Virus record (IMG/VR): IMGVR_UViG_3300044627_000710 | DNA from: an uncultured virus (IMG/VR IMGVR_UViG_3300044627_000710) | Lineage: Duplodnaviria; Heunggongvirae; Uroviricota; Caudoviricetes | Reading direction: 5' to 3' (one strand) | DNA length: 64,000 nucleotides | In this document: positions 1 to 63,620 of the stretch, piece after piece | Layout of the letters: each line of letters starts with the position of its first letter | Numbering within the stretch: position 1 is the first letter of the stretch | Translations under genes and position numbers: made by a program | Notes under the pieces: generated by a model | What the model was told of the DNA's origin: nothing | The model's input: the letters and a program-made list of their open reading frames with translations, nothing else | Database searches by the model: none

Positions 1-2
1 TC

Positions 3-272: not shown

Positions 273-294
273 TCGACTCTGGACACTGTATACT
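267..294 (+). promoter_or_regulatory. putative sigma70 promoter
   Basis: TTGTAA-16 nt-TATACT upstream of RBS AGGAG (311) and ATG 322. Confidence 0.5.
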
Positions 295-321
295 CTTAGA
301 CACAAAGATAAGGAGAAAGCA

Positions 322-711
322 ATGACTGAAGACACCATCCCGATGGACAAGCTCGTGCGCATGTACACCAAGATGCGCACGGCCATCCAAGACCTCGACA
401 AGCAGATCGAAAACATCAAGGAGCAGCAGCAAGAGGTGAAGAACGCCATGAAGGATCAGATGATGGCGCTCGGTACCAAGTCTGTTCGCACCGACTTCGG
501 CACGATCACGCTCAAGGAGAAGACCCGGTACTACACCCAGGACTGGGACAGCTTCAAGAAGTTTGTGATCGAGCACGACGCTGTCGATCTGCTTGAGAAG
601 CGCATCGCGCAAACCAACATGCAGACGTTCTTGGAAGAGAACCCCAGCCTGCATCCCCCTGGACTCAGCAATACTGCCGAGTTCGATATCGCTGTTACCA
701 AGCCTCGTTAA
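322..711 (+). CDS. phage replication-module protein with N-terminal coiled coil
   Basis: RBS AGGAGAAAGC before ATG 322; lies between helicase and SSB-like gene. Confidence 0.75.
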   Translation: MTEDTIPMDKLVRMYTKMRTAIQDLDKQIENIKEQQQEVKNAMKDQMMALGTKSVRTDFGTITLKEKTRYYTQDWDSFKKFVIEHDAVDLLEKRIAQTNMQTFLEENPSLHPPGLSNTAEFDIAVTKPR

Positions 712-723
712 GGAGAAAGCACC

Positions 724-1620: not shown

Positions 1621-1626
1621 TCAACC

Positions 1627-1642
1627 GGGGGCTTCGGCCCCC
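1627..1642 (+). terminator. UUCG hairpin (weak terminator or processing site)
   Basis: GGGGGC-TTCG-GCCCCC just after the stop codon; only a short T run follows. Confidence 0.45.
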
Positions 1643-1649
1643 TTCCACC

Positions 1650-1931
1650 ATGTCCTATTCAGTCAAGACTGTTAAGGCCGTAAAGGCATCACCCAAAACG
1701 CTCGGGAGTCAACTCGGGCGTTGGGCCGTACATTTGGACTTCTCGGTCATCCGCATCGCCCAGGTTACGGGCGCATCGCGTCAGACTGTATACAACTGGA
1801 TCACTGGCAAGAACACCGTGCTCGCGCCTTATCGGCCTGCCGTTGAGCAACTGCTGGAGATTCTGATGAAGTCCAACGATAACGAACAAGCATGGAGCAA
1901 AGCATGTCAGGAATTCAGTATCAAAGCCTGA
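1650..1931 (+). CDS. helix-turn-helix DNA-binding protein
   Basis: VIRIAQVTGASRQTVYNWITG, a Cro/XRE-type HTH. Confidence 0.75.
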   Translation: MSYSVKTVKAVKASPKTLGSQLGRWAVHLDFSVIRIAQVTGASRQTVYNWITGKNTVLAPYRPAVEQLLEILMKSNDNEQAWSKACQEFSIKA

Positions 1932-2101
1932 GCGACGACGAGTTCGCTAGGCAGATTCAAGCCATCATCGACAAGGCGGGCGTGCTGCCGTCTGAAGTGA
2001 TTAACGAATTGGTCTACCGCGTGGACAACGGCGGGCGAGACAAAGAGCACGAACGGGCGCGTACCAACCCCAACCAACTGCCGCTGCCCTTCAACGAATA
2101 A
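1904..2101 (+). CDS. hypothetical protein
   Basis: GGAG RBS before ATG 1904; ends in QLPLPF, resembling a beta-clamp-binding motif. Confidence 0.6.
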   Translation: MSGIQYQSLSDDEFARQIQAIIDKAGVLPSEVINELVYRVDNGGRDKEHERARTNPNQLPLPFNE

Positions 2102-2113
2102 CTCGGGACATTC

Positions 2114-4993: not shown

Positions 4994-5198
4994 GAAGGGG
5001 CAGGGGTTCTTCATCCCTGCCCTAGACCTCGACGCCACGCGTGAGGCGGGGCTAGTGGACGCTGTCAGGCAGCGGGTGGTGGACGCGCACGCTATGTACG
5101 CCATCCACCAGGGCATGCAGGGTGTGCTGTTTTACCGGCACACCAAGCACGTCACATCTCCCTCAACTTTGCGGCGTCCGAAGCGTCCCGCACCATAG
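4971..5198 (+). CDS. hypothetical protein
   Basis: Overlaps primase stop; PWKTLEKGQGFFIP start; overlaps the convergent giant gene at its 3' end. Confidence 0.55.
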   Translation: MLPWKTLEKGQGFFIPALDLDATREAGLVDAVRQRVVDAHAMYAIHQGMQGVLFYRHTKHVTSPSTLRRPKRPAP

Positions 5199-40582: not shown

Positions 40583-41512
40583 TTAGGCGCCAGCAGAACC
40601 CCAGATTCCCAGGGGATCAGACCAGCCGAACGAATAACGCTCGCGGGCCTTGTAGCGCACGTTGCCGGTGTCGAAGTCACCGTCCATCGAGGTGGACATG
40701 GCCACACGCTCGAAGTGCTTCAGACCGTTAGGCACGTCCGTGGTCAGGAACCAAGCGTTGACGTCGGTCAAGAAGTGGTTGACGGTGAAGCCACCGGGGA
40801 TCGCACCCATCTGCTTAATAGCGTTGATGTCGTTATCAGCAGTGGCCACGCGCAGTTCCGTGTCAAGCAGACGCTTGGCAACGAACATCAGGCTGGGCGG
40901 AATGACCAGCTTGACCGGCTTGGCAGCGATCAGCAGACCACGTTCGTCCGTCCACGCAGCGATTTGAATCACAGCGTTTTCGAGCGAAGTCTCGTTCAGG
41001 TCCACGGCAACAGACGGGCTGTTGTAGTTCACACCACCGGAAACCAGGGGGTGACCCACGCGAGTGGCCGAAGCGTTAACGCCAAACAGCGACACACCGT
41101 CACCGCCGGGGTAAGCGCCGTTGAAGCCGTTGTTCAGAACGGCAGCGGCCTTAACCTGCTTGGTGTAAGACATCGCACGAGCCAGAGCCTTGGTGTAGCG
41201 GGCAGACAGACTGTCATACAGGTTGTCTTCCACTGCTTCCTCGGTGATCGAGAAGCCAAGGGCGATAGTCTCGTGGTTGTAACGAGCGGTGAAGGCTTCC
41301 TGCGCATTGTCATACGCGATGGCCTGACCTTCGTTCTTCACCGGAGCGGCACTAAAGCCAGCCAGCTTGGTTTCTTCTTCAAAGGAACGCTCGGACTTTT
41401 CAGTCTCGTAGATTTCCTTGTGCTCTTCGCCGTAGCGAGCGTACTCCATGCCGAACAGGGCGTTCAGACCGGGCAGGAGTTCCTTGAGTAGTTGGGCACG
41501 AGAAATTGCCAT
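40583..41512 (-). CDS. major capsid protein
   Basis: 309 aa; KELLPGL, EGQAI.YD, P..LVIPP.L, RERYSFGW (Mu gpT-like HK97 fold); strong RBS and downstream terminator. Confidence 0.85.
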   Translation of the reverse strand: MAISRAQLLKELLPGLNALFGMEYARYGEEHKEIYETEKSERSFEEETKLAGFSAAPVKNEGQAIAYDNAQEAFTARYNHETIALGFSITEEAVEDNLYDSLSARYTKALARAMSYTKQVKAAAVLNNGFNGAYPGGDGVSLFGVNASATRVGHPLVSGGVNYNSPSVAVDLNETSLENAVIQIAAWTDERGLLIAAKPVKLVIPPSLMFVAKRLLDTELRVATADNDINAIKQMGAIPGGFTVNHFLTDVNAWFLTTDVPNGLKHFERVAMSTSMDGDFDTGNVRYKARERYSFGWSDPLGIWGSAGA

Positions 41513-44012: not shown

Positions 44013-44193
44013 CTTCGGCTTTCTTTGCAAGGTCAAGGATGTAACGCTCTGCCATCGCCAGACCTTGGATGACGCCGCAGAGCTTTTGGTATTCCTCAAA
44101 ATTGCGACACGCACCACCAGCCAAGTCATCGGCGTAGTTGTTCATGTCGGTGCGTATTTGTTCGCGCAATACGCGTGCGAAGTCTTGGATCAT
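43999..44193 (-). CDS. small protein downstream of portal
   Basis: EEYQKLCGVIQGL; ATGA overlap with portal stop. Confidence 0.7.
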   Translation of the reverse strand: MIQDFARVLREQIRTDMNNYADDLAGGACRNFEEYQKLCGVIQGLAMAERYILDLAKKAEDADE

Positions 44194-46652
44194 TTAGTGG
44201 GCGTTTCCTTTCGGCGTTGTTGGGCCTCTTGCGCTTTGGCCTTGGCGATGTCGATGCCCATGCGGACACCTTCACGTTCTTGTTGCGCGACAAGCATCGC
44301 CTTGTCCTTCTCGATGTCGGACTGCGTTTTCATAGCGCGAAGCTGCAGGTCGCCCTTGACCCGCTCCTGCTCAAGCTCTTGCTTGTCAGCCTCAGCGGCG
44401 GCGTCCATCATGATCTTCTGCGCCTTGAGCTTCAACTCTTCCTGACGCAGCATCAGTTCTTGCTGCTGCATCTGGATCACCGGGTCTTGCGCTTGCTGCT
44501 GAGCCTGCATCATCGCGGCCTGCTGAGCGGCTTGGGCGTTGACTTGCGTAGCAGCTTGGGCCATCATTGACGACAGCGCGATCTCGATTTGCGGCGGAAG
44601 TTTCTCGTCTTCGGGAGGCAGAGGCATGCCCAACTGCGCCTCAATCTGCTTGCGCATCTTGTAGCCCAGGTGTTCAGCAATATGCGCTTGCTGCGCGGCC
44701 ACGATCTGCTGCGCCATCGGGTTCTGCCCCACGACCTGCGCCACCAACGGGTTCTGCGTGATCATCATGTGCACCGCAATGTGTGCGTCGTGATCCTGGT
44801 GCAGGAACGCCTTGACCGGCTTGTTCTTGAGCAGGTCTTGGTTCTCGGTTACCGGGTCGATAGGCTTCTCATCATCAGGCAGCGGAACGAGCTTCTCTGC
44901 GTTCTTGATACCCAACACGTCCAGCATCGCCCTGTGCAACTGCGGCAGGTCGTAAATCTGCGGCGCCATCTGCGCCATCTGAATGACGGCTTGGTACTGA
45001 ATCACCCGTTGCGACATCGTGGCCGCGTTGGGGTCGCTCACCGGAATAACGTCTACGAGGTCGTAGTCCGACTGCTTGGCACGCTTCGTCCCGTACTCAG
45101 GGTCGTACTCGTAGTCCGGCTCGGTGTAGTCGCGGATGATCGACTTCAGGAGCTTGAACTCCTGCTTGAGCGAGTAGTGAGTGCGGGCCTGGACCGCCGT
45201 CAGAATTTTGAGTTGCCGCTCCAGCAGCGCCAGCGTGGTGCCCACCGGCGCCTGCGCAGACATGTCGGCCACCTTCATATCTGCGGTGGCAGCGAAGCGA
45301 CGGCCCTCTTCTACGATGTTGCCCAGCAGGGTGTAGAGAACTTGGCTGGGCTCTTTGTAGGGCAGCGGCAGGATGCTGTCGCGGATGTTGCCGGAGGCTA
45401 CATCGACATCGCGGAACTCTCCAGGGGCGATAGGCGTGTCATCGCCCTTGATCCGCAAACCACGTGACTTCAGTCCACCAGGGAGGTTAGACAGAGTGCC
45501 AGCGTCAACAAGCTGACGCATGAGCGAAGTAGCACTCTTTGCAAAGCCACCGATAAGATGGAACAGACCAAAGCCGTACGCTCCGAAGCCTGGAACGTAC
45601 TGGTAGTGCACGAAGTGCTGGCGCTTGAGTTTGAGGTCGTCATCCTCGTTCCAATTCCTGTAGATGCTCAGGATGGTGTTCGTACCGCGAATAACGGTAA
45701 CCACGTACGGCACGGCAATCTCGCCGTCCTTGTCACCAAACGGGTCATCTGGGATGTGCAGGTCAACGTGCACCTCCATCAGCGTGAAGCGATCATCGTT
45801 GAGATCGCTGAAGCCCGTCTCTTTGTCTTTGGCCTGCTGAATGTCGGACTTGTTCTTGTCCGGCTCGCCCAGTTCTACCTCACGGTAAAACCCTGCAGCC
45901 TGCAGCTTGACGAGGTCGTTCTTGCTCTTGCGCATGACGTGCGTCAGGCGGCGGCACGTGTCCATGTCGGTGGTGCCGTACGGCAGGATGATGTCCTCCG
46001 CAGGCACAAACATGCTGACCTGCCGACCCAGGTTGGGGTCGTAGTACACCTTCTTGAACGCCGAGCCGGTGGCAGGCAGGCTCCACAGCATGCGCTCGTG
46101 CTCAGGCCGGTACTCCTTCATGACTTCGGTCAACTCGAAGTTCATGTCGTCCTGCACACGAACGGCGGCTTCTTTCTTCTGGGGCGTCTCTTTGCCAATG
46201 ATCTTGGTCTTGACCGGGCCTGCTGCAGGGAACGTCTCCGTGATCATCTCTGACTGGAAGCGCACAACGGCTTCCGTGATCATTGGGTGGAACACACCAC
46301 AGGCGCCGTTCCACGGCTCTGTTCTTTCCTCGATCTGCAAGCCCAGCAGCTTCAGACCATCGACGTACGCTTTCTCCCACTCCTTGCGGGACGCCTTGTC
46401 TTGGTCGATGTCGGCAACCAGATCACCGCCTAGACCCTCAATAAACGAAGAATCCAAGTACTCGGCCAAGTTGGCGTCGAATGAGTCTGCGGTCTTGGGT
46501 TCTGGGCGGAGGCTTATCTCCATACCGTCGATGCCGATGTTGACCTCTTCTGGGTCAATGATCTCGATCTCAATCTCCGGTTCGGCCTGAGCCAACTCTT
46601 CGATGCCCGTCGGGGCGGAGTAGAGCGCCTTGTCGATGTTCGTCGCCATCAT
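44190..46652 (-). CDS. portal protein
   Basis: 820 aa after terminase; GSAFKKVYYD, YGFGL; Gln-rich coiled-coil C-terminus as in P22-like portals. Confidence 0.85.
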   Translation of the reverse strand: MMATNIDKALYSAPTGIEELAQAEPEIEIEIIDPEEVNIGIDGMEISLRPEPKTADSFDANLAEYLDSSFIEGLGGDLVADIDQDKASRKEWEKAYVDGLKLLGLQIEERTEPWNGACGVFHPMITEAVVRFQSEMITETFPAAGPVKTKIIGKETPQKKEAAVRVQDDMNFELTEVMKEYRPEHERMLWSLPATGSAFKKVYYDPNLGRQVSMFVPAEDIILPYGTTDMDTCRRLTHVMRKSKNDLVKLQAAGFYREVELGEPDKNKSDIQQAKDKETGFSDLNDDRFTLMEVHVDLHIPDDPFGDKDGEIAVPYVVTVIRGTNTILSIYRNWNEDDDLKLKRQHFVHYQYVPGFGAYGFGLFHLIGGFAKSATSLMRQLVDAGTLSNLPGGLKSRGLRIKGDDTPIAPGEFRDVDVASGNIRDSILPLPYKEPSQVLYTLLGNIVEEGRRFAATADMKVADMSAQAPVGTTLALLERQLKILTAVQARTHYSLKQEFKLLKSIIRDYTEPDYEYDPEYGTKRAKQSDYDLVDVIPVSDPNAATMSQRVIQYQAVIQMAQMAPQIYDLPQLHRAMLDVLGIKNAEKLVPLPDDEKPIDPVTENQDLLKNKPVKAFLHQDHDAHIAVHMMITQNPLVAQVVGQNPMAQQIVAAQQAHIAEHLGYKMRKQIEAQLGMPLPPEDEKLPPQIEIALSSMMAQAATQVNAQAAQQAAMMQAQQQAQDPVIQMQQQELMLRQEELKLKAQKIMMDAAAEADKQELEQERVKGDLQLRAMKTQSDIEKDKAMLVAQQEREGVRMGIDIAKAKAQEAQQRRKETPTK

Positions 46653-46658
46653 GAATCC

Positions 46659-48197
46659 TTAGTAGTACGCCGCTTTGCGGGCGCGGAAGAACGTGTCTTC
46701 CTTCTCGTCTGAGTCCAGACTGATGAAGCCCCCTTGGCGAAACCGCAGGAGCGCCTGGGTCATAGTGTCTACGAAGTCGTCGTGCTCGCCTACTGGGAAC
46801 GCCGCTACTTCCTCGATCACCTCCCGCGCCCAGCGCGTGTCGGGTGCCCAGACTTTGCCGGAGGAGAACAGGTCAGCCACCGCGTTCATCCGCACCACCT
46901 TGTCATTGCCGCGCGACGGCGTGTACTCCGCCACTGGGATGCCCATGTTGCGCAGTTCATACATAAGCGGAGCGCCTGCGGCCTTCTTTTCCACGATGAA
47001 CGCGTCGGGTTCCCACTCTTTATAGTGCTTGAGTGCGACTTGCTTGAGTTCAGGAAACGCCATCCGGTCTTTGAACGCGTCCAGCAGCATCAGTTGTGGG
47101 CTGTTGCCCTCCTCCTCGTTGTACCAAACGCCCCACGTAGTGCAGGCGCTGAAGTCGGAGGTTGTCTTTGTCTCGTAGGCCGTGTCCCAAGACTGGATGA
47201 TGTACTCACACGGTGGAGGATCGTCGTTTGACCAGATGCGCCACAGGTGCCGCCCCACAATGGCAGAAGCGTCAGCCGTAGGCTGCTGCATGTACTGCGC
47301 GTTCCAGAACCTGGGGTCTAGGTTGGCCTTTTTAGACTTGAGTTGGTCCAGTGGCCACTGCTCTGGCCACAGAGACTTCTCGTTCTCGGTGTTTTCGTGC
47401 AGTATCGCGGGCAGTTCCACGACTTCCCACTGATCCGCCTCTGGGTTCTTGGTCTGGTAGTCAATGAGACGCCCGGTGAGGTCAAGAAGTGACCACCGCG
47501 TCATGATGACTATGATGGCGCCCCCTGGCATCAAGCGTTGCAGCGGGCCTGTTTGGAACCAGTTCCACGCCGTGTCGAACGCGAGGCGGCTGTTGATCTT
47601 TATGTCCTGCTCAGAGTGTGGATCGTCAATAACAAACAGATCAGCGCCGCGACCAGCCAGAGCACCACCGACACCAGCAGCGTAATACTGGCCTCCCTTG
47701 GAAGTAGACCACTTCCCGGCGGCTTTTTGGTCCTCAGCCACCAGCGTTTCCGGGAAAAGCTCGGCGTATTCATCCGAGTCGATCAGGTTTCTGATCCTCC
47801 GTCCGAAGTCTTCAGATAGAGACGCAGTGTGCGTGCCCATGATGATCTTCTTCTCGGGGAATTTACCCAGGAAGTACGCCGGAAACAAGTAAGAACTGAA
47901 CTCGGACTTACCCATACGGGGCGCGATGTTGATGATCACGCGTTTTTTCTTACCCGCAAGTACGTCCTCGAAGATTCTGGCCAGTTTTTTGTGGTGCGGC
48001 CCCACCTTGAACCCCGGATAGACGTGTTTTGCAAAGCCAATGAGGTTCTTTTGGGCCAGATCACGCGAAAGTCGGCGCTCGCGCTCTTCCAAGTCCTCAA
48101 AAAGCTCCATCTTCTCCGCCAAAGACATGCTTGGCAGAGCCGTCTGGATGGCAGAAAGCTCACGCGGGGTGAGACTGGTCAGCGTCTGAAGATTCAT
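46659..48197 (-). CDS. terL: terminase large subunit
   Basis: APRMGKS, VIDDP, MTRW, QSWDTA, HDDFVD. Confidence 0.92.
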   Translation of the reverse strand: MNLQTLTSLTPRELSAIQTALPSMSLAEKMELFEDLEERERRLSRDLAQKNLIGFAKHVYPGFKVGPHHKKLARIFEDVLAGKKKRVIINIAPRMGKSEFSSYLFPAYFLGKFPEKKIIMGTHTASLSEDFGRRIRNLIDSDEYAELFPETLVAEDQKAAGKWSTSKGGQYYAAGVGGALAGRGADLFVIDDPHSEQDIKINSRLAFDTAWNWFQTGPLQRLMPGGAIIVIMTRWSLLDLTGRLIDYQTKNPEADQWEVVELPAILHENTENEKSLWPEQWPLDQLKSKKANLDPRFWNAQYMQQPTADASAIVGRHLWRIWSNDDPPPCEYIIQSWDTAYETKTTSDFSACTTWGVWYNEEEGNSPQLMLLDAFKDRMAFPELKQVALKHYKEWEPDAFIVEKKAAGAPLMYELRNMGIPVAEYTPSRGNDKVVRMNAVADLFSSGKVWAPDTRWAREVIEEVAAFPVGEHDDFVDTMTQALLRFRQGGFISLDSDEKEDTFFRARKAAYY

Positions 48198-48777
48198 CGG
48201 TCGGCTGGGCGTGGTCCGGTTCTTCTGCGCCCACATCAATAACGTCGGTGACGTTCATAAAACGGTTGAGCTTGTCCTTGATGCGCTGCTCAAGATCAGC
48301 GTCGGACATTTCCGTCTTCTTTATCTCGATCTTCTCGGTGAACAAGCCCACTTCTGTGACCTTGCCCAGCAAACCAAGCGCCTTCAAGCGGATATTGGCG
48401 TTGGAACTTTGAGTTTCTTCAAGCAGCTTGGCCACCGTGTAGCCACGCAGTTCTTTGGCCTGCTCAACAAACTCCCAGTCGTATGCCGTCAGCATGCCAG
48501 TTAGATGGCGCACGGCTGCGGGAGTTTTAAGTTGGGAAAGTGCTTGATGCTGGAGCGTCTTATCTTGCGCGGTGGCCAGTGCACCAAAGGCTTGGCGGGC
48601 CGCTTCTTTTTCAAAAGGTGCAGTTATAGCTTCGTCATCAACTGCGCCTAACTCTTGAAGCCAGTCGGCAGTGCGCACTTGCGCAGACAAAAGCTCTTCG
48701 GCGGACACTTTCTCAAGTTCCACGAATCCGTCCGGTTTGGTGATTTCCGGCTTGAAGTGCACCAGATGTTCCAGCAT
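48160..48777 (-). CDS. putative terminase small subunit
   Basis: Directly upstream of terL; RLKALGLLGK..VGLFTE. Confidence 0.65.
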   Translation of the reverse strand: MLEHLVHFKPEITKPDGFVELEKVSAEELLSAQVRTADWLQELGAVDDEAITAPFEKEAARQAFGALATAQDKTLQHQALSQLKTPAAVRHLTGMLTAYDWEFVEQAKELRGYTVAKLLEETQSSNANIRLKALGLLGKVTEVGLFTEKIEIKKTEMSDADLEQRIKDKLNRFMNVTDVIDVGAEEPDHAQPTDESSDADQSHPA

Positions 48778-48816
48778 GGGGCTTCCCTTTTGCTGCGCGG
48801 ACTGTACACTAATAAA

Positions 48817-48901
48817 CGACAGCAAGGCAACTTGTCTGTCGCTTCTCCTCTCAGTTGCAAAGCTGACTTATGCCCCGGCTGAAAAGCGCGGGGCTTTTTT
48901 T
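48817..48901 (+). ncRNA. candidate anti-Shine-Dalgarno small RNA
   Basis: Three GNRA-capped hairpins (GCAA, GCAA, GAAA), unpaired CTTCTCCTC linker, T7 tail; -10-like TACACT at 48805-48810. Confidence 0.65.
48872..48901 (+). terminator. rho-independent terminator
   Basis: GCCCCGGCT-GAAA-AGCGCGGGGC-TTTTTTT. Confidence 0.8.
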
Positions 48902-48903
48902 CT

Positions 48904-49086
48904 GGTGGGGTGTCAAATGTTTTACAGGGTTTTCCCGAAATTTTTGTAGTGGGGTGGGGGGTTGGCGCGGGATTGGAGAAGGGGGTGTGTCTAGGGTTTT
49001 ACAAAATGGGTGGTGCGGGTGAGGATTAGTGTTCTTGTGTGGCCGTCCCCTTTGCTCAGCAATTGGGGGGTGGGGGTAGGGTGGGG
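48904..49086 (+). other. G-tract-rich non-coding segment with a G-quadruplex motif
   Basis: G6-T-G5-TA-G3-T-G4 at 49065-49086 and further G runs. Confidence 0.6.
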
Positions 49087-49135
49087 TCGCGGCGCGGCGA
49101 AGTACGCACCGCGCGCAAGGCTACAAAACACGCTG

Positions 49136-49144
49136 TGTTAAAAT
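49136..49144 (+). promoter_or_regulatory. extended -10 early promoter
   Basis: TGTTAAAAT (TGn-TAAAAT) ahead of the first plus-strand gene. Confidence 0.55.
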
Positions 49145-49150
49145 AGAGGC

Positions 49151-49206
49151 ATCGGTTGGGGAGACTTGGCCGATTGGTTTGCCCTGTGCCACACACGGGG
49201 CTTTTT
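49151..49206 (+). promoter_or_regulatory. leader hairpin plus terminator-like hairpin
   Basis: ATCGGTTGGG-GAGA-CTTGGCCGAT, then GCCCTGTG-CCACA-CACGGGGC-TTTTT. Confidence 0.5.
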
Positions 49207-49225
49207 CGTTTCTAGGAGCAATGAC

Positions 49226-49657
49226 ATGAGCAAGAAAGTATTCGAGGGTTTGGTCGTCACCACAGCGATGGCGGCGGTGTTCGAGGATGTGGACAACACG
49301 TCCACGAGTTTCTGCGAGCGACTGCTCGCACTTGGCATCGGCGACCGCGCTACTGCGCGGCCATTCGTCATGCTGTGGGCGGCTAAGAAGTACAACGCCC
49401 GTATCGTGATGGGTCAACGCGGCGAGACTTGGGCGGTGCGCGACTGCGATGCGTCACGCGCTACATCACGGGTTCTTGCCGCTTGCTTCCCAAGCGTTGA
49501 TCTGCCCAAGCGCAAGGGGAACAGCAAGAGCAAGCCCGTGAAGTTCACGCGAGCCATGACTAGTGCCGCTAACTTGTTTCTCGCAGAGTTCGAGGGCAAA
49601 GACAAGGCCGCGCAGATCAAGCAAGCCTTGGCCCTGCTTCGTTCTTTGCAGAAGTAA
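49226..49657 (+). CDS. early hypothetical protein
   Basis: RBS AGGAGCAATGAC before ATG. Confidence 0.7.
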   Translation: MSKKVFEGLVVTTAMAAVFEDVDNTSTSFCERLLALGIGDRATARPFVMLWAAKKYNARIVMGQRGETWAVRDCDASRATSRVLAACFPSVDLPKRKGNSKSKPVKFTRAMTSAANLFLAEFEGKDKAAQIKQALALLRSLQK

Positions 49658-49747
49658 CTTGTGGACAGTTCGTCCACGAGTTTTCCAGGCGGCGATTCCT
49701 GCGAGGGGGTCGCCGCTATTTCTTTTCTTGTCAAAGGAGCAATGACC

Positions 49748-49909
49748 ATGAAGAAGCAATTCACCACCAAGACCATCGACCGCAACACTGGCCGCGAGAT
49801 CAAGAAAGCCCTGCGCGAAGAGCGCAAGGCCAAGGCACGCGCCAACGAGATCAAGCACCGCGCCAACGAGTCCGAGTGGCAAGCCGAACTGCGCCGCCTC
49901 GGTTTCTAA
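49748..49909 (+). CDS. small basic early protein
   Basis: RBS AAAGGAGCAATGACC; phage-like codon usage. Confidence 0.65.
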   Translation: MKKQFTTKTIDRNTGREIKKALREERKAKARANEIKHRANESEWQAELRRLGF

Positions 49910-52003: not shown

Positions 52004-52026
52004 CCAACCAAGAAAGGAGCAATGCA

Positions 52027-52347
52027 ATGACTACGAACAAGGTGATATTGCAACGCAGGTGGAACAACCTGCGTAAGAACATGGAGCACATGGAGAAACT
52101 GATCCTTGAACTTATGCGTAACCCTGCCACTGAACCTGAACACATGGCGCAAGCACACGCCATGTATGCCAACGCCGCCAAGCAGATCAGTGAGATCAGC
52201 GCGAGTGTGGACAACGCGTTGAGGGGCGTGGCTCAGCCCGAGCCGAAGCCGGTCTATGTCTGTGTCTGCGGTTGCACCGAGCCACCGATGAAGTCCATAG
52301 ATCACCCCGATGTTTGGCCCTCATGCCCCAACTGCGGAATGGTTTGA
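52027..52347 (+). CDS. hypothetical protein with C-terminal Zn ribbon
   Basis: RBS motif; CVCGC..CPNCG. Confidence 0.65.
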   Translation: MTTNKVILQRRWNNLRKNMEHMEKLILELMRNPATEPEHMAQAHAMYANAAKQISEISASVDNALRGVAQPEPKPVYVCVCGCTEPPMKSIDHPDVWPSCPNCGMV

Positions 52348-52797: not shown

Positions 52798-52816
52798 CCA
52801 AGAAAGGAGCAATGCA

Positions 52817-53824
52817 ATGACTAGATCAACACACCACTCAGCCGATGTGCGTAACTACACACTGGCACAAGCGCACTTCAAAAACATCAAGCCCGTCAAG
52901 TCCAGTGCGTGGCCTGCCAACACCAGACCACTGCACCCCAAGCGCGGCTCTTACCCGCAGTACAAACTGATCCAACACGATGGCGGCAAGTACTACGACA
53001 TCGTGCTGTACGAAACCATCATGGGCAGGCACTACGCTCAGGCGCAGGACGGTTCGTACACCTCGTACTACAACAACCACAACACCGCACTCAGCCGTGA
53101 CTTTCTCTACGACACGCTGCGTAGAAACTGGGCCAACGAGATCACCGATACCAACGGCAAGCAAGTTGTTGTGCACATCGGGTTCTCAGACACCAAGCAC
53201 TACTGCGTTGACCCGACAGATGGGCAGAAGTTCTCAACGCGCATAGTGCTCGTGCAATCACCGACCGACCCAAACAAGTGGCGCATCGACACGGCACGCT
53301 CACACGAGGCCAAGTTCTACAGCAAGGTATCGACTGACGCCGACAAGCAAGCCCGTGCTCAGTTGCGACAGCGGCTTGAGACTCTGGTTGAGATGGCCGC
53401 GCTTCGCTTGCCACAGATGGCGCGTGATGCTGACCCTCAGCGGTGGAAGGGTGAGCCGTTCTCATCGTGGCCGTCCAACGCCAAACGCAAATTCCTAGAC
53501 ATGCGTGGGCTGTGCGACCTGAGAGTTGTGCTCGAAGACGCATGGACAGACGAGGCACGCACTGCGTTCTTCGACGCCGCGCAGCATGTCTACGATACCT
53601 TGCTGAGCAAGCGTGCGTATGTCGAGGTGCGGGGTGCGTGGGACTCGACCTTTGCCGATGCGTGTAACAAGATGATTGATGGGATAACCGAGAAGGATTT
53701 CACGCAGTCCTTCATGCGCTTTCTCATCGACAGATCGGGCAACAACACACAACGCGGACGCAAGTATCTGCCGCAGTTTTCTGCCCCTGGGGAATGGCCC
53801 CGTACTGGGGTTTTTGCTGAGTAG
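52817..53824 (+). CDS. hypothetical protein
   Basis: 335 aa; RBS motif AAGGAGCAATGC. Confidence 0.75.
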   Translation: MTRSTHHSADVRNYTLAQAHFKNIKPVKSSAWPANTRPLHPKRGSYPQYKLIQHDGGKYYDIVLYETIMGRHYAQAQDGSYTSYYNNHNTALSRDFLYDTLRRNWANEITDTNGKQVVVHIGFSDTKHYCVDPTDGQKFSTRIVLVQSPTDPNKWRIDTARSHEAKFYSKVSTDADKQARAQLRQRLETLVEMAALRLPQMARDADPQRWKGEPFSSWPSNAKRKFLDMRGLCDLRVVLEDAWTDEARTAFFDAAQHVYDTLLSKRAYVEVRGAWDSTFADACNKMIDGITEKDFTQSFMRFLIDRSGNNTQRGRKYLPQFSAPGEWPRTGVFAE

Positions 53825-55086: not shown

Positions 55087-55109
55087 CCAACCAAGAAAGG
55101 AGCAATGCC

Positions 55110-56312
55110 ATGTCATTCGAGAAACTAACACTCCAACAGCGTGTGTCTGCGGCCAACATCGACTGCATGCGTCACCCTGCCTTCTGTCAGTTCACTGCCT
55201 ACATTGCGATGGGCAAGTCTGAGGTACAGACAGCGGTCAAGACTGCATGCACCAATGGCCGTGACAAGTTGTACGGCGCTGAGTTCATCAAGCCACTCAA
55301 CCGCAAGCAGATGCGCTACCTCGTCATGCACGAGAACCTGCATGTGGCCCTGCGTCACTGCACTGGCTACAAAGCGGTGTCGCGCAAGTACCCCAAGTTA
55401 GCCAACGTAGCCAAGGACTATGTGGTCAACGGCATCATCGAGGAGCTTGACCCCAACTTCCTGTTCGTCGAGCGCCCGACTCCAACCATCCTCATCGACC
55501 CCAAGTATTTCGGTTGGTCATTCCCGCAAGTCTTCAACGACTTGTTCAAGAACGGCAAGGGTGGTGGCGGCGAGGGTGGTGACGAGGATGGTGGCGGCGA
55601 CTTCAATGAACCCATCGACGCACACGAGGAGATGGAGTTCGCTGACGAGGAGGCCGAGCGCCAACACGAGCGCGAGATCGAGGACGCTGCTCGGCAAGGC
55701 CAGTTGATTGCCAAGCGCATGGCGGGTAAGGGTAGTGGTGGCCGGGACATCTTCGGCACTGCGGCGCACCGTGACACTGACTGGGTGTCTGCGTTGCAGG
55801 ACTGGATCGCATCGGTGTCCGAGGGTGACGACCTGTCTCGCTTCTGTCCTCCCAACAAGCGCATGCTTGCCGCAGGGTTCGTGATGCCTTCGCACTTCAG
55901 CGAGTCGCTCGGCGAGTTGGTCATCGCTTGCGATACCTCGGGTTCGATGGGGCCGTACTACACCAACATCTTCGGCGAAGTTGCGCGTATCTGCGAGACG
56001 ACTAAGCCTGCCAAGGTGCGCGTGCTGTGGTGGGACACGTCAGTATGTGGTGACCAAGAGTTCGCCCCTGGCGACTACGACCGCATCGCGTCCCTGCTCA
56101 AGCCTGCGGGTGGTGGCGGCACTACGCCCGATGTAGTTGTGCAGTATCTCAAGGAGAAGAAGATCAACGCCAAGGGTCTGGTCTGGCTAACAGATGGGTA
56201 CATCGGTTGCGACACGCCGCGCACCGACATGCCTGCGATTTGGGGAGTGGTCAATAACGATACGTTCGTGCCTCAGCACGGCAAGGTTCTTCACATCAAC
56301 GTCAACGTTTAA
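55110..56312 (+). CDS. metallopeptidase-VWA protein (DUF2201-like)
   Basis: TACTNG, HENLH, Gly/acidic linker, MIDAS DTSGS, GGGGT, LTDG. Confidence 0.85.
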   Translation: MSFEKLTLQQRVSAANIDCMRHPAFCQFTAYIAMGKSEVQTAVKTACTNGRDKLYGAEFIKPLNRKQMRYLVMHENLHVALRHCTGYKAVSRKYPKLANVAKDYVVNGIIEELDPNFLFVERPTPTILIDPKYFGWSFPQVFNDLFKNGKGGGGEGGDEDGGGDFNEPIDAHEEMEFADEEAERQHEREIEDAARQGQLIAKRMAGKGSGGRDIFGTAAHRDTDWVSALQDWIASVSEGDDLSRFCPPNKRMLAAGFVMPSHFSESLGELVIACDTSGSMGPYYTNIFGEVARICETTKPAKVRVLWWDTSVCGDQEFAPGDYDRIASLLKPAGGGGTTPDVVVQYLKEKKINAKGLVWLTDGYIGCDTPRTDMPAIWGVVNNDTFVPQHGKVLHINVNV

Positions 56313-56334: not shown

Positions 56335-57222
56335 ATGAATACTCAAGTTACCCCCCGCTACAACATCGACACCTGCGCCATGCTCGTGGAGTTCAACGCT
56401 TCGGTGTGGACTGCGCGCAAGTTGGATCGCTCAACCACTGAGGAAGTTGTTACCAACAAGAACGCGGCGGCTAAGGATGCCGCACGTGTCAACAAGCACT
56501 TGCTTGCCGGGCGCAGTGAGTTGGATGTGGTGCAGCAACTGGTCAACCGTGTGCGTACCTTCGTGTACGACAACACCCTGCCGTGGTCTGACTCGGGCCT
56601 GCGCCTGTTGCCCACCAAGAACTTCATCAAGTTCACCGACAAGATGAACGACTTCGAGTCGGAGTTCGAGGCAACCGTCAACGCGTTTGTGGCTATCTAT
56701 CCCACGCTCATCACTGCTCAGGCGATGGCGCTCGGTGACATGTTCAAGCGCGACGACTACCCAACTGCCAATGAGATCGTTACCAAGTTCTCGTTCCGAG
56801 TCAACTACATGCCTGTGCCTACTGCGGGTGACTTCCGGGTTGACGTAGGCAATGCGGCTCAACAAGAATTGCAAACCAAGTTGGCGCAGCTTGCTGACGA
56901 GCGTGTCGAGGCGGCGATGGCAGATGTGCGTGCACGACTGGGCGACCATCTCAAGCGCATGTCTGACCGACTCACTACCGACACCGTGGCAGGTGAAGCC
57001 AAGGCGCGTAGGTTCCACGGCTCCCTTGTCGATGGCGCCTTGGAGTTGTGCGACTTGATCAAGACGCTCAACGTGGTGGGTGACGCCACACTCGAAGCAG
57101 CACGTCACGAGTTGGAGCAAGCACTGGTCGGTGTCACGCCTGACGAGTTGCGTAAGAACGAAGCCGTACGTGACGATACCAAGAAAGCAGTTGACTCGAT
57201 CCTTGGTCGGTTCAACTTCTAA
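56335..57222 (+). CDS. DUF3150-like protein
   Basis: WTARKLD..TLPW..GLRLLP..DYP..KF; follows the AAA/VWA pair. Confidence 0.6.
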   Translation: MNTQVTPRYNIDTCAMLVEFNASVWTARKLDRSTTEEVVTNKNAAAKDAARVNKHLLAGRSELDVVQQLVNRVRTFVYDNTLPWSDSGLRLLPTKNFIKFTDKMNDFESEFEATVNAFVAIYPTLITAQAMALGDMFKRDDYPTANEIVTKFSFRVNYMPVPTAGDFRVDVGNAAQQELQTKLAQLADERVEAAMADVRARLGDHLKRMSDRLTTDTVAGEAKARRFHGSLVDGALELCDLIKTLNVVGDATLEAARHELEQALVGVTPDELRKNEAVRDDTKKAVDSILGRFNF

Positions 57223-57299
57223 GCCGGGGGGCACTGCCCCCTTCCCTCTGCCCGTCCCTCTTGGGAACGGTCATCACCTTTCTTTTTAGGAGAAGCGAC

Positions 57300-57704
57300 A
57301 TGAAAAAGCAAACGCAAGAAACCAACGCAACCGAAACCGTGGCCCCGACCACCCCGACCATCCCCACCAAAACCAACAAGGCTGCGCTCGTCAGAGTGCT
57401 GCTCAAGCAGAAGAAGACTGCGAAACAAATCGCCGCTGAGGTTGGGTGCAAGCCGCAGTACGTTTACAGCGTGCAGAACCACGACCGCGTCAAGGCACGC
57501 AAGGCCAAGGCCAAGCGAGATTACGAGCGCAGGAAGGAGATCGCTGCAGGCTCGGTCAAGCGCAAGTACGTCAAGAGTGGCAAGTTTGCGAAGAAGGCAG
57601 CGCCAGAGGTTCGCACTCAGTACATCGAGATCGAGGTTCCGCAACCGCACTACAACCTGACATGGAGCCAGCGTTTCAAGGCACTGTTCACTGGGAGGGT
57701 TTGA
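57300..57704 (+). CDS. basic helix-turn-helix DNA-binding protein
   Basis: RBS AGGAGAAGCGAC; TAKQIAAEVGCKPQYVYSV. Confidence 0.7.
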   Translation: MKKQTQETNATETVAPTTPTIPTKTNKAALVRVLLKQKKTAKQIAAEVGCKPQYVYSVQNHDRVKARKAKAKRDYERRKEIAAGSVKRKYVKSGKFAKKAAPEVRTQYIEIEVPQPHYNLTWSQRFKALFTGRV

Positions 57705-59625: not shown

Positions 59626-59900
59626 GCCTGTTCAAAACTGAGAAGGAGATTGAGATGCACGTAGAACAAATGACCCCAGATCAGCGTGACCACTTCAAGT
59701 TGGTCATATCCAAACTGATCGAGTGCTACACCGACGAGGAGAAACATGCGGTGGTGTTGATTGGGAACAAGTCCCCGGCAATGATGGTGCTGTGTATCAA
59801 CGCTACCGAAATGGAAGCTGCATCCTTGTTGCAAGCCGCTGACAACCACATGCAGTACAGAGTGACTGAAGATGCGCCGCCCAAGGAGATGTTTAATTGA
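59622..59900 (+). CDS. hypothetical protein
   Basis: Overlaps both neighbours in the operon. Confidence 0.65.
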   Translation: MSLFKTEKEIEMHVEQMTPDQRDHFKLVISKLIECYTDEEKHAVVLIGNKSPAMMVLCINATEMEAASLLQAADNHMQYRVTEDAPPKEMFN

Positions 59901-61867
59901 GCGCCCCGTTCGACCGCATCCTCGTCATCGACTTCGAGACAGCGTGGGACAGGAAAGACTACACCCTGTCCAAGATGACCACAGAGGAGTACGTGCGCGA
60001 CCCACGCTTCAAGGCATGGGGGTTGTGTTGGAAAGAAGTTGGGCAGAACGCATACCCGATGTGGGTGCGGGGCGATGCTATTGAAGAGTGGGCAAGCTAC
60101 ATTGATTGGAGCCGCACTGCTGTGCTCGCACACAACGCCCAGTTCGATGTGACCATCCTGTCCTGGCGCTACGGTATCCACCCCGTCTTCATCTTCGACA
60201 CGCTGTCGATGGCACGTGCACTGCGCGGAGTTGAGGTGGGCAACAGCCTTGCCAAGTTAGCTGAGGACTTTGGTTTGCCACCAAAGGGCAAGGCCGTGCA
60301 CAGTACCGATGGCATGTTGGACGAGATCAGCGAAGAAGTTGAGCGTGAGTTGGCTGAGTACTGCGCGCACGACACTGTCTTGTGCGAAGAGATATTCAGT
60401 CGCCTGCGCCCCGGCTACCCGACCAAGGAGTTGCGGCTCATCGACATGACGCTCAAGATGTACACGCGGCCTTTGCTTGAACTTGATACAGAGATGTTGA
60501 GCAACGCCATTGAAGAAGAAAGGAACGCACGTGAAGAACTACTACAGAGGCTCGGCGTGGATCAGGCTGTACTTGCGTCGAACGAACAGTTTGCTGAAAT
60601 CCTTCGGACCCTTGGGGTGGAGCCGCCAACGAAGATCAGTAAGACTACAGGTAAAGAGACACTCGCGCTTGCTAAAAATGACGCGCTCTTTCAAGCCCTC
60701 AGAAATGGGGATCGGGAAGACGTTTCGCTTATCTGCGAAGCCCGACTCAAGGTCAAGTCCACAAGCGAACGAACAAGAGCGCAACGTTTTCTGGACATCG
60801 CATCGCGTGGCAGGCTCCCGGTTCCTCTGAGTTACTACGGAGCCACAACTGGCAGATGGACTGCGGCCAAGGGCAGCGCCATCAACATGCAGAACTTGAA
60901 GCGCGGATCGTTCCTGCGTAACGCAATCATGGCGCCGCCGGGGCACGTGCTTGTGGCGGGTGACTTGTCGCAGATCGAGCCTCGGGTGCTTGCTTGGCTT
61001 GCTGACTACCAAGACATGCTCGACATCTTCAAGGCCGGGGGCGATCCTTATGCCGCCTTCGGTTCGCAGATGTTCAACATCCCTGGTCTGACCAAAGACT
61101 CCCACCCTGACCTGCGCCAGTCTGCCAAGTCGGCGTTGCTCGGGTGCGGCTACGGGTTGGGGTGGGCATCCTTTGCTCAGCAACTTCTTACTGGCTTCCT
61201 GGGTGCGCCGCCTGTGCGGTACGAGAAGGAGTTTGCCAAGACACTAGGGGTAAACCGGGAGTACGTTGAACGCTTCCTTGAGTGGGAGGACAACGAGAAA
61301 CGTCTTTTGGAGATACCCCACACGTGCACTGAGAAAGAACTTTTGGTGCACGCGCTTGCTGCCAAGAAGATCATCGACGCCTACCGTGCCACTGCATGGC
61401 CCGTGGTGGCGCTGTGGGACTACTTTTCAACTTTGATTCAACGAAGCCTTGCAGACGGCGAAGAAGTGGTGTACAAATGCCTTACGTTCCGCAAAGGCGA
61501 GATTGTGCTGCCCAGCGGCATGAGCCTGCTCTACCCCGACCTTCGACAAAAGAAGGACTCTCGGGGCAGAAGGCAATGGGTGTATGGGCCTGACGAGACG
61601 AAGCTGTATGCGGGAAAGATCACGAACAACGTGGTGCAGGGCACTGCGCGGATCGTGATGACGGACGGGATGCTCAGAGTGGCGAAGCGTTACCCGATTG
61701 TGGGGACGGTGCACGACGAGTTGATTGCTGTTGCGCCTGAAGAAGAGGCAAGTGACGCGAAGACTTGGGTCTTGGCGCAGATGACTATGGAGCCGAGCTA
61801 CATGCCGGGGATACCCCTGGCCGCTGACGGTGGTGCACACAGACGATACGGACTGACAAAGAAATGA
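59897..61867 (+). CDS. family A DNA polymerase with 3'-5' exonuclease
   Basis: IDFET, HNAQFD, YCAHD; TGRW, MQNL, DLSQIEPR, KSALLGCGYG, VHDE; TTG start after AGGAG. Confidence 0.92.
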   Translation: MSAPFDRILVIDFETAWDRKDYTLSKMTTEEYVRDPRFKAWGLCWKEVGQNAYPMWVRGDAIEEWASYIDWSRTAVLAHNAQFDVTILSWRYGIHPVFIFDTLSMARALRGVEVGNSLAKLAEDFGLPPKGKAVHSTDGMLDEISEEVERELAEYCAHDTVLCEEIFSRLRPGYPTKELRLIDMTLKMYTRPLLELDTEMLSNAIEEERNAREELLQRLGVDQAVLASNEQFAEILRTLGVEPPTKISKTTGKETLALAKNDALFQALRNGDREDVSLICEARLKVKSTSERTRAQRFLDIASRGRLPVPLSYYGATTGRWTAAKGSAINMQNLKRGSFLRNAIMAPPGHVLVAGDLSQIEPRVLAWLADYQDMLDIFKAGGDPYAAFGSQMFNIPGLTKDSHPDLRQSAKSALLGCGYGLGWASFAQQLLTGFLGAPPVRYEKEFAKTLGVNREYVERFLEWEDNEKRLLEIPHTCTEKELLVHALAAKKIIDAYRATAWPVVALWDYFSTLIQRSLADGEEVVYKCLTFRKGEIVLPSGMSLLYPDLRQKKDSRGRRQWVYGPDETKLYAGKITNNVVQGTARIVMTDGMLRVAKRYPIVGTVHDELIAVAPEEEASDAKTWVLAQMTMEPSYMPGIPLAADGGAHRRYGLTKK

Positions 61868-62145
61868 AAGAAGTTGTGCTGATTGACTACGCGATGCCCT
61901 TGATGCGGGTGGAGCGTTTAGCCAAAGAGATTCATGACTTGTGCCTTGAGGACAAGTATGAAGAGGCGCGGGAGACTGCCATGCAGTTGGTTGTGGAATC
62001 CCGCTTGTTGCAAACCACGCTCAGATACATGAGCGAAGAAAAGGAGAAGCGATATGCAGTTGCCAAAAACAATCAAGGTAAGCCGGACAACGTACAGCGT
62101 CCAGCAACCAAAAAGTCTGCCGCGAATGGCGCTCGGGCACATTGA
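61864..62145 (+). CDS. hypothetical protein
   Basis: ATGA overlap with polymerase stop; LIDYAMP. Confidence 0.55.
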   Translation: MKEVVLIDYAMPLMRVERLAKEIHDLCLEDKYEEARETAMQLVVESRLLQTTLRYMSEEKEKRYAVAKNNQGKPDNVQRPATKKSAANGARAH

Positions 62146-62344
62146 CTACGAAAGTAGGACGATCCGCATTGCAAAGCAAGCGCACAACAAAGCAGTTGGC
62201 AAGCACGAACGTAGCGACACCTTCTGGCACGAGTTGACCCACGCCATCCTGCACGACATGGACAGCCGACTGGTGAACGACGAGAAGTTTGTGACTCGGT
62301 TCGCCTACCGTCTCAACAACGCCATCAACTCAGCAAAGTTCTAA
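62054..62344 (+). CDS. small zincin-like metallopeptidase
   Basis: LGHIDY..I.I..TFWHELTHAIL..E; RBS AGGAGAAGCGAT. Confidence 0.7.
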   Translation: MQLPKTIKVSRTTYSVQQPKSLPRMALGHIDYESRTIRIAKQAHNKAVGKHERSDTFWHELTHAILHDMDSRLVNDEKFVTRFAYRLNNAINSAKF

Positions 62345-63015: not shown

Positions 63016-63288
63016 ATGCCCTACGTCAACAAGCCCCGCCCCTACAAGAAAGAGTACGAGCAGTACGATGGGACGGAAGCGGTCAAGAAGAAACGTGCTC
63101 AACGCAACAAGGCGCGGCGCATGCTTGAGCGCGAGGGAGTTGTCAGCAAGGGCGATGGTAAAGATGTTGACCACAAGCAACCGCTATCCAAAGGGGGAGC
63201 GACGACGCGCTCCAACCTCAAGGCGGTGAAGGCAAGTGCGAACAGGTCGTACGCACGTAACAGCGACCACACAATAAAGGAGAAGTGA
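63016..63288 (+). CDS. HNH endonuclease
   Basis: DVDHKQPLSKGG..SNL..NRS. Confidence 0.8.
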   Translation: MPYVNKPRPYKKEYEQYDGTEAVKKKRAQRNKARRMLEREGVVSKGDGKDVDHKQPLSKGGATTRSNLKAVKASANRSYARNSDHTIKEK

Positions 63289-63620
63289 TGACACTAGATG
63301 ATGCTCTTAACAAAATAGGGAACTGGCACACAACCCACAACACCATGTACCCAGTTGGCGGCGGCGTGATCGACACGCGCTATCCCACACCAAAAGCGTT
63401 TGTCACGAGCGAGATGCTTGACCATGACGCGTTCAAGATTCCCCTGAGCACGTTGATGGACATGTGGCTTGCTCGATTTGGCAACGACTGGGTGGACACC
63501 GCGACCTTGCAAGACGATCAGTTCTTCGCCATAGCGGCGGAGCGACTGCGCTCAACTGGGCAACTTGAGTCGCACTACCTGACTGACCGTGCGCGATTCG
63601 TTTGTCGCAAGGCTGAGTGA
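63288..63620 (+). CDS. hypothetical protein
   Basis: RBS AGGAGAAG; TGATG overlap. Confidence 0.65.
   Translation: MTLDDALNKIGNWHTTHNTMYPVGGGVIDTRYPTPKAFVTSEMLDHDAFKIPLSTLMDMWLARFGNDWVDTATLQDDQFFAIAAERLRSTGQLESHYLTDRARFVCRKAE

Follow-up and report, generated by a model that had tools for sequence, protein, structure and literature searches.

A family of small RNAs in uncultured tailed phages, predicted to pair with the translation start regions of early genes

The c4 antisense RNA of the phages P1 and P7 is a component of a temperate immunity system. It is processed from a longer transcript, and its short exposed segments pair with ribosome-binding-site sequences, blocking translation. For sar of phage P22, transcription runs opposite to the target, and the RNA is therefore fully complementary to it. 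In Alphaproteobacteria the small RNAs cuckoo/CcsR, AbcR and mmgR use exposed C/U-rich motifs to pair with the ribosome-binding sites of several mRNAs, and the anti-Shine-Dalgarno small RNAs of this bacterial class carry CCUCCUCCC-type motifs in their loops. Phage proteins, namely RegA and RegB of T4, are likewise known to shut down the translation of sets of early mRNAs at ribosome-binding sites.

According to a review published in 2025, about two dozen phage small RNAs have been described, nearly all from temperate phages or prophages (PMC12197685). Almost all of them belong to phages and prophages of enteric bacteria, and most act on host or immunity genes; c4 of P1/P7 is listed in Table 1 of the review, and sar of P22 is presented as a small phage RNA blocking translation initiation by pairing over the start region (PMC12197685). 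The tables of this review contain no RNA resembling the family reported here, and full-text literature searches returned no phage-encoded small RNA with an anti-Shine-Dalgarno segment. The toxic small RNAs of Betaproteobacteria are described as chromosomal RNAs of approximately 57-92 nt with unknown function (PMC4603805).

Here we analyzed a unit of about 85 nt at positions 48817-48901 (plus strand) of a 64,000-nucleotide stretch of phage DNA, which is called the window throughout. The window represents a tailed-phage genome, in which the virion and packaging genes are located on the minus strand, reading leftward from 48777 to 5152. Among them are the large terminase (46659-48239, phrog_38), the portal (44190-46652), a major-head-like gene (40583-41512) and endolysins. 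A 2820-aa protein from the same block only matched LPD38 and phrog_9854; given the size of this protein, N4-like hairpin promoters were considered, and they were rejected as it showed no virion RNA polymerase match. The early and replication genes are encoded on the plus strand from 49226 onward, with further plus-strand genes at 1-4993, and comprise an exonuclease, the DNA polymerase (59897-61867) and the primase (2114-4993). No integrase was detected among the 68 window proteins scanned. Judged by the large terminase, the nearest cultured phages are the Pelagibacter phages HTVC027P and HTVC023P (50-53% identity), followed by Planktothrix and Synechococcus phages (45% identity). Directly upstream of the large terminase lies a putative small terminase gene (48160-48777, minus strand) with no family match of its own, which is the divergent neighbour of the small RNA. 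Between this gene and the first early gene, which run divergently, is a gap of 450 bp; the unit sits in it, in agreement with its initial placement between terS and the early region. A second hairpin-plus-terminator unit is present at 49150-49208, ahead of the first early gene.

A preliminary description of the locus proposed a layout of two hairpins, a linker and a terminator, and each of these elements was recovered at its proposed position in the minimum free energy (MFE) fold of the plus strand. Hairpin 1 (48817-48841) reads CGACAGCAAG-GCAA-CUUG-U-CUGUCG and is closed by a GCAA loop. It is followed by the single-stranded linker CUUCUCCUC (48842-48850), which forms the free core of the seed, by hairpin 2 (48851-48866), also with a GCAA loop, and by an intrinsic terminator (48872-48901), consisting of a bulged G+C-rich stem (48872-48894) with a GAAA loop and seven U residues (48895-48901). 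The seed UGUCGCUUCUCCU spans positions 48837-48849, of which 48837-48841 at the same time belong to the 3' arm of hairpin 1 and to the extended seed. The plus strand folds with -36.8 kcal/mol (z -4.32) and none of 200 shuffled sequences folded as well, compared with z -2.19 and 7 of 200 for the minus strand. In the ensemble of the window copy the MFE structure has a frequency of 0.63. All three loops of the window copy are indeed of the GNRA type, as had been pointed out; however, this pattern is not conserved across the family described below.

The predicted promoter of the unit has the -10 element TACACT (48805-48810), which is part of the near-palindrome (c)TGTACACT, and the predicted transcription start 7 nt past this element is 48817, identical to the 5' end assigned before. 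At the -35 position (48782-48787), 17 nt upstream of the -10, the window carries a degenerate CTTCCC, which had led to the suggestion that a phage activator may be needed. The element is poor in the window, but this is a peculiarity of the window copy: TTGnnn is found at -35 in 33 out of 42 distinct relatives, mostly as TTGCAA, the commonest form, or TTGTAA, and the -10 at a distance of 17 nt is TACACT in 30, TATAAT in 5, TATACT in 4 and TAAACT in 3 of them. Since relatives carry TTGCAA-N17-TACACT, no activator need be invoked. No conserved ORF was found on either reading of the unit, which has the properties of an independent unit, i.e., its own promoter, a Rho-independent terminator and no coding potential.

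The unit is present in nearly unchanged form on three near-identical IMG/VR contigs. In the record nearest to the window (G001) the small RNA region is absent, and cultured phages yielded no blastn match to the intergenic region. More distant relatives were collected via the small-terminase protein, for which 592 relatives were found in viral contigs; the best 80 loci of these show 56-68% identity. In most relatives the region upstream of the small terminase gene has the same layout, with a TGTACACT-type -10, a GCAAG hairpin, a free (U)UGCUUCUCCU, a second hairpin, whose sequence is unrelated and whose pairing is kept, and a T-run terminator. A covariance model built from the window (R1) located the unit in the terminase-upstream slot in 44 of 59 sources, and a second model (R2) found the unit in 15 of 30 further phage records. 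Wherever the context is known, the copies lie divergently upstream of a putative small terminase gene. Matches to a 16-base pattern in viral contigs were mostly due to chance, and with R2 28 of the 80 loci kept proved to be true copies. In total R2 matched 79 sequences in uncultured phage contigs, 76 of which are distinct. In genomes of bacteria and archaea a 22-base pattern matched 10 times, roughly as often as chance would give, with a single true copy (L322); it is located on a contig of only 4.9 kb that was binned into a MAG and therefore points to no host.

The stems of the unit covary in these relatives. In the 76-member R2 alignment, which was fitted to the model and leans toward the structure in its pair counts and covariation, standard pairs occupy 93.0% of 1723 pair cells, 24 of 25 model pairs change on both sides, and the covariation score reaches 0.655, compared with 0.201 ± 0.010 for shuffles (0/500 reach the value) and at most 0.094 for slid controls. 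MAFFT placed the hairpins wrongly in an alignment of 28 copies, which was left out of the pair counts. All ten model pairs of hairpin 1 and all six of hairpin 2 change on both sides, with 92.7% and 92.1% of the cells paired, respectively; hairpin 2 is absent in variants of the G002 type. In the terminator, the outer helix (6 of 9 pairs) is paired in 98.7% and the three inner pairs in 83.7% of the cells, and the relatives listed have a T run after the stem, on the plus strand. Alignment-free folding of single sequences gave three hairpins in 71 of the 76 members. In 51 of them the MFE structure leaves the whole seed core unpaired, and the core has a mean unpaired probability of 0.86. Across the family 274 G-U/U-G pairs stand against 18 A-C/C-A combinations, which shows that the RNA is read from the plus strand and, together with the position of the T run, confirms that G-U pairs and T tail only fit this strand. 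The sequences of hairpin 2 and the terminator vary freely, while the seed is conserved: its consensus is GCUUCUCCU, and CTTCTCC (CUUCUCC) is found in 63 and TCTCC in 72 of the 76 distinct members. On this comparative evidence the unit at 48817-48901 is a member of a real, previously uncatalogued phage small-RNA family.

An Infernal search against Rfam returned no family at the gathering threshold in the whole 64-kb window. The Betaproteobacteria toxic small RNA family RF02278 scored 19.2 bits in the window and 28.4 bits in the best relative (gathering score 50), and anti-hemB (RF02837) 15.9 and 25.6 bits, respectively (gathering score 49.5). A weak match of 15.8 bits was obtained for mmgR (RF00519, gathering score 41). 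For the C4 antisense RNA (RF01695) no match was found up to E = 10 in 48700-49300, and none at gathering level in the 64-kb window.

In the window the seed region 48837-48849, TGTCGCTTCTCCT in DNA letters, is the exact 13-nt complement of 57288-57300; this is its longest trans match, and the next-longest exact match has 11 nt, at 62042. The best exact match falls into the start region AGGAGAAGCGACAUG (57288-57302, plus strand) of a gene for a 134-aa helix-turn-helix-like protein (57300-57704). At 62042-62056 (plus strand) the start region AGGAGAAGCGAUAUG of a gene for a 96-aa HExxH (SprT-like) protein (62054-62344) offers 11 exact nt followed by one G-U and one further pair, UCGCUUCUCCU of the window copy facing AGGAGAAGCGA. 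The start region AGGAGAAGUGAUG (63278-63290, plus strand) of a gene for a 110-aa protein (63288-63620) forms 11 pairs including one G-U. All three matches, at 57288-57300, 62042-62054 and 63278-63288, had been listed in the preliminary description and were found as given there. By simple arithmetic a 13-mer from a 28-nt seed should match about 0.03 times in 128 kb, counting both strands. For AGGAGAAGC, 0.47 occurrences are expected and 4 are found, one being the RNA's own complement, and 0/100 shuffles reach 4; however, stereotyped ribosome-binding cassettes, among them AAAGGAGCAATGnnATG and AAGGAGAAAGCAnATG, recur in the early genes of this phage, so that shuffles understate chance complementarity.

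To rank possible targets, every ATG, GTG or TTG opening at least 50 codons on the coding strand was considered (1436 sites from a crude gene-start caller), and scores were calculated for a 24-nt seed window together with the opening energies of both RNAs. Full-length duplex folding was set aside for the ranking because it yielded unrealistically long interactions. The accessibility-corrected energies were lowest for the start sites 63288 (-12.0 kcal/mol), 57300 (-10.8 kcal/mol) and 62054 (-10.5 kcal/mol), and the next site reached -7.4 kcal/mol. The start regions at 57300 and 62054 therefore outrank other ribosome-binding sites, as had been anticipated, on ranks 2 and 3 of 1436 and behind 63288. 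As the extended seed partly lies in the 3' arm of hairpin 1, this arm must open, at a cost of about 7.8 kcal/mol. The bulged AGGAGAAAGC sites, which had been proposed as additional targets, are present at 311, 711, 51084 and 52349 (4 against 0.17 expected), but rank outside the top 20 of the 1436 starts. Complementarity extends 5-9 nt past the Shine-Dalgarno core into the spacer and the AUG, and so goes beyond the generic AGGAG core as originally stated.

To follow seed and targets through the family, five related records were fetched whole (G002-G006) and 15 more were added, giving 21 genomes including the window. All five related genomes contain an orthologue of the gene at 62054, and none contains one of the gene at 57300. 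For six genomes, the longest exact matches in trans (one or two per genome) fall on start regions of plus-strand genes. The longest seed match is 13 nt in G002 (next best 9 nt) and 12 nt in G004; there are matches of 15, 15 and 14 nt in G003, where an SNF2 helicase gene carries the 14-nt site, of 11 and 11 nt in G005, and of 13 and 11 nt in G006. The start region of the 62054 orthologue offers at least 10 complementary nt to the seed of the same genome in 16 of the 21 genomes. The longest exact complement measures 14 nt in two genomes (G007 and G010), 13 nt in G002, 12 nt in G033, 11 nt in four and 10 nt in eight, followed by single cases of 9 and 8 nt, two of 6 nt and one of 5 nt; the matches of only 5-6 nt are those of G005, G006 and G028.

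Genomes with a deviating seed carry a correspondingly deviating target. The odd seed UAUCUCCAUUGCU of G002 pairs with AGCAAUGGAGAUA over 13 nt, covering the AUG and the next two codons, CUUCUCUCCUCA of G026 pairs with UGAGGAGAGAA over 11 nt, and CAUCUGCUUCUCCU of G007 and G010 pairs with AGGAGAAGCAGAUG over 14 nt. In G003 an extra U in the seed meets an extra A in the target. When the 19 distinct seed-target pairs were permuted, the cognate sum of pairing was 191 compared with 163.7 ± 5.4 (0/20000 permutations reach it) and the summed energy -423.6 compared with -392.9 ± 12.1 (p 0.006), both in a test that ignores relatedness. In 12 of the 19 pairs some non-cognate seed fits the orthologue start region better than the cognate one, and the signal mainly comes from G002, G026, G007/G010 and the window, i.e., four or five lineages. 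Within these limits linker and target covary, as the preliminary description would predict. Two relatives lacking seed, hairpin 2 and terminator have no detectable 62054 orthologue, and each of their records covers over 30 kb of the early side; this joint absence is only a hint, as the two are related to each other. The 96-aa product of the gene at 62054 contains the motif HELTH, with a weak Pfam match to SprT-like proteins (E 0.0021) and a structural lead in the Atlas (TM 0.90) to an SprT-like cluster found only in viruses, while a PDB sequence search and NCBIfam gave nothing useful on the functions of the target proteins. From the comparison of start regions, this small HExxH gene is most probably the most widely conserved predicted partner of the small RNA.

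Covariation, seed conservation, target ranking and natural variants all agree with the original idea of a discrete plus-strand RNA, whose anti-Shine-Dalgarno segment would pair with the extended ribosome-binding sites of particular phage genes. The family very probably acts in trans as a blocker of early-gene translation starts. In our model a sigma-70-type promoter of the unit itself would drive transcription of an RNA of about 85 nt in the direction away from the putative small terminase gene, and the RNA would end at the intrinsic terminator. The two hairpins would keep the C/U-rich seed single-stranded between them, and the seed would pair with the Shine-Dalgarno sequence, the spacer and often the AUG of a few plus-strand mRNAs from the early and replication modules of the same phage, in the window those starting at 62054 (the small HExxH protein), 57300 and 63288. 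This pairing would occlude the 30S binding site and lower translation of the targets. We regard this explanation as a whole as probable. Structure, strand, seed conservation, promoter and terminator, complementarity and co-variation can be read from the compared genomes, while synthesis of the RNA, repression by pairing, its timing and the participation of any chaperone are inferred. Five sequencing runs matched small shares of the stretch, and contigs from four metatranscriptomes lie on neighbouring genes, at 48512-48750 and 49059-49661, and not on 48817-48901; they derive from standard libraries, which cannot show an RNA of about 85 nt, and so carry no weight for or against such a transcript.

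Other explanations have to be weighed against this model, and several of them start from the minus strand. There a divergent promoter of the terminase operon may overlap the small RNA promoter at 48801-48830, with a putative -35 TTGCCT (complement of 48825-48830) and, 18 nt further, a -10 TACAGT (complement of 48801-48806). Many relatives have TTGCGC or TTGCAC on the minus strand, 17-18 nt from TACATT, and TTGCnC-N17/18-TACAnT is readable there in most of them. The unit could thus be a device on the DNA level, in which back-to-back promoters at the TGTACA palindrome exclude each other and the terminated RNA is a by-product that insulates the downstream early promoter. The near-palindromic -10 fits this reading, as does the GCAAG word, which is kept either as loop (37) or as part of the stem (17, with the loop GCAG), and even the seedless relatives retain palindrome and GCAAG. 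A by-product, however, would not keep three helices by compensatory changes, nor a free conserved seed, nor would it change in step with the start region of a gene at a distance of 13 kb, and we consider this reading improbable. It is compatible with a functional small RNA, as the two promoters may overlap and compete and their overlap may set when the RNA is made. Taken one step further, back-to-back promoters on one palindromic -10, of which one fires at a time, would make the RNA the output of a clade-wide early/late switch that silences mRNAs of the replication module (the small HExxH protease-like protein, the helicase and others) and is gone once late transcription takes over, or the converse; this extension is speculative and rather unlikely. 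The same slot, opposite and immediately upstream of the terminase operon in the 44 of 59 sources, and the AGGAGAAGC on the minus strand of the unit would also suit a cis-antisense RNA, if the late terminase transcript started right of 48901 and the small RNA paired perfectly with its leader. Yet a consensus scan of 48600-49400 found no sigma-70-like minus-strand promoter right of the unit, and a perfect antisense RNA needs neither a conserved free seed nor complementarity in trans, nor would it account for a seed that is conserved while the remainder drifts. We judge this possibility to be poor, below that of a promoter device. The minus-strand AGGAGAAGC(AA)ATG could finally provide the terminase mRNA with a ribosome-binding site and start codon for a leader peptide or small upstream ORF, and in 25 of 55 distinct relatives an ATG does lie 8-13 nt after the start of GGAG. 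However, 19 of the 55, the window among them, have no start codon there, the ORFs range from 3 to 53 codons, use all three frames with respect to the terminase gene and encode unrelated peptides, and read on that strand the 274 G-U pairs would turn into A-C mismatches. This leader ORF was excluded.

Two more readings accept the plus-strand RNA and assign it another role. It could be directed at the host and damp host translation broadly or selectively, as the Betaproteobacteria toxic small RNAs, the matches in the phage being incidental. The best sub-threshold Rfam matches are RF02278 and RF02837, and the core UCUCCU pairs with any AGGAGA; their scores, however, stay far under the gathering scores of 50 and 49.5, and the complementarity that reaches 5-9 nt past the Shine-Dalgarno core changes together with the phage start regions. 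We rate this role as improbable too, a little below the promoter device and above cis-antisense action, and it does not exclude a trans-acting small RNA on phage genes. Alternatively, the unit could be a 5' leader or attenuator of the early operon, where transcripts from TACACT stop at the terminator and read through conditionally. It has the same orientation as the early genes, and the second hairpin-plus-terminator unit before the first early gene would suit such an arrangement. Against it speak strong early promoter-like elements (TTGACA-N17-TATAAA in relatives) between terminator and first gene, the dominance of one fold (MFE frequency 0.63), with no anti-terminator alternative evident, and the fact that the best partners of the seed are distant genes. 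Attenuation is thus very improbable, and a trans-acting small RNA remains the preferred explanation.

The family comprises 76 distinct members, is absent from Rfam and occupies a fixed slot in uncultured phages in which no integrase was detected. It appears to address the translation starts of early genes encoded by the phage itself, and the natural variants of seed and target already resemble compensatory mutants. If confirmed, it would represent a new Rfam family and add an RNA layer to the temporal gene control of lytic phages. It would also provide a compact, naturally reprogrammable translation blocker, whose rules could be read from dozens of natural pairs. The predicted targeting also suggests that the small HExxH protein has to be dosed carefully by the phage.

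RF02278 and RF02837 of Burkholderia resemble the family only in design: they too are short, with a C/U-rich anti-Shine-Dalgarno stretch ahead of a G+C-rich terminator. In contrast to these bacterial RNAs the present one is phage-encoded, has a 5' hairpin with a GCAA loop and carries its seed between two hairpins. With cuckoo/CcsR, AbcR and mmgR it shares the design of an exposed C/U-rich motif for pairing with ribosome-binding sites; those RNAs, however, are chromosomal and have their motifs in loops, whereas GCUUCUCCU lies in a linker. To T4 RegA/RegB there is only a functional analogy, as these are proteins and the factor predicted here is an RNA; if the overlapping-promoter switch exists, it would be the RNA counterpart of RegA/RegB in virulent environmental phages. 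The closest systems in function appear to be c4 of P1/P7 and sar of P22. Like sar, the present RNA is a small phage RNA paired over the start region of a phage gene, here by prediction, but it is encoded 8-14 kb away from its predicted targets and pairs over 10-14 nt. Like c4, it is a phage-encoded, structured RNA in the range of 77-85 nt, predicted to act in trans on the phage's own mRNA by pairing with ribosome-binding sites. Unlike c4, it has its own predicted promoter and terminator beside the terminase genes, belongs to a phage whose 68 scanned proteins include no integrase, and seems to address several start regions.

Directly 3' of the terminator of the small RNA lies a conserved palindrome, TGTC-N8-GACA (within 48911-48950 in the window, and in relatives), which reads GTGTCAAATGTTTTACA in the window and TGTCCAGAGTTTGACA and TGTCTAACGTTAGACA in relatives. 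The palindrome overlaps a TTGACA-type -35 element that is followed by TATAAA and, judged from this arrangement, it looks like an operator of the main early promoter.

Between this palindrome and the first early gene, whose start codon is the ATG at 49226, a further unit was found within 49135-49225. It consists of a promoter-like element TGnTAAAAT (49135-49146), a hairpin 3' of it (49151-49174) and a second terminator (49181-49208, plus strand) just 5' of the gene. At the equivalent position five relatives (L082, L066, L074, L019 and L079) gave weak matches to R1, the covariance model built from the window. One metatranscriptome contig (X3), which spans 49148-49315, begins at this unit and continues through the terminator. 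One possibility is that the unit acts as a leader or an attenuator, another that it is a second small RNA.

Many early genes of the window have in common a near-identical ribosome-binding cassette, AAAGGAGCAATGnnATG, with sites at 49210-49228, 49730-49750, 52010-52029, 52800-52819 and 55093-55112. Its spacer contains an out-of-frame ATG 5 nt upstream of the real start, and in two or three genes this ATG opens a mini-ORF of three codons, which has TGA as its stop and overlaps the start codon. A G+C-rich hairpin, GCCGGGGGGCACTGCCCCC, with a T/C-rich tail is located at 57224-57250, between the gene 56335-57222 and the 57300 gene; therefore the latter, the best-matching target, may begin a separate transcription unit.

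The slot of the small RNA differs among the relatives. L334 (record G025), a complete relative, has no match to the successor model R2, and its slot (1380-1460, minus strand of the locus) carries TTGCAA-N17-TATACT, then a single short hairpin and a terminator. Such a unit would specify a small RNA that is shorter and divergent and exposes a different sequence. A sub-clade (L017, L022, L031, L034, L042-L044 and L052, plus records G037 and G038) retains a TGTACAC palindrome and the GCAAG hairpin; these loci lack the seed, hairpin 2 and the terminator. Because the terminase ATG is only 7 nt from the palindrome there, the terminase mRNA may be leaderless. In L045 and L036 palindrome and GCAAG hairpin are missing too. 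An orthologue of the HExxH gene was not found in the two longer records searched, G037 (reached from L045) and G038 (from L043).

Elsewhere in the window, a minus-strand ORF of 2820 aa (5152-13614), whose sole matches are a C-terminal LPD38 domain and phrog_9854, probably encodes a giant virion protein or an injected polyvalent protein.
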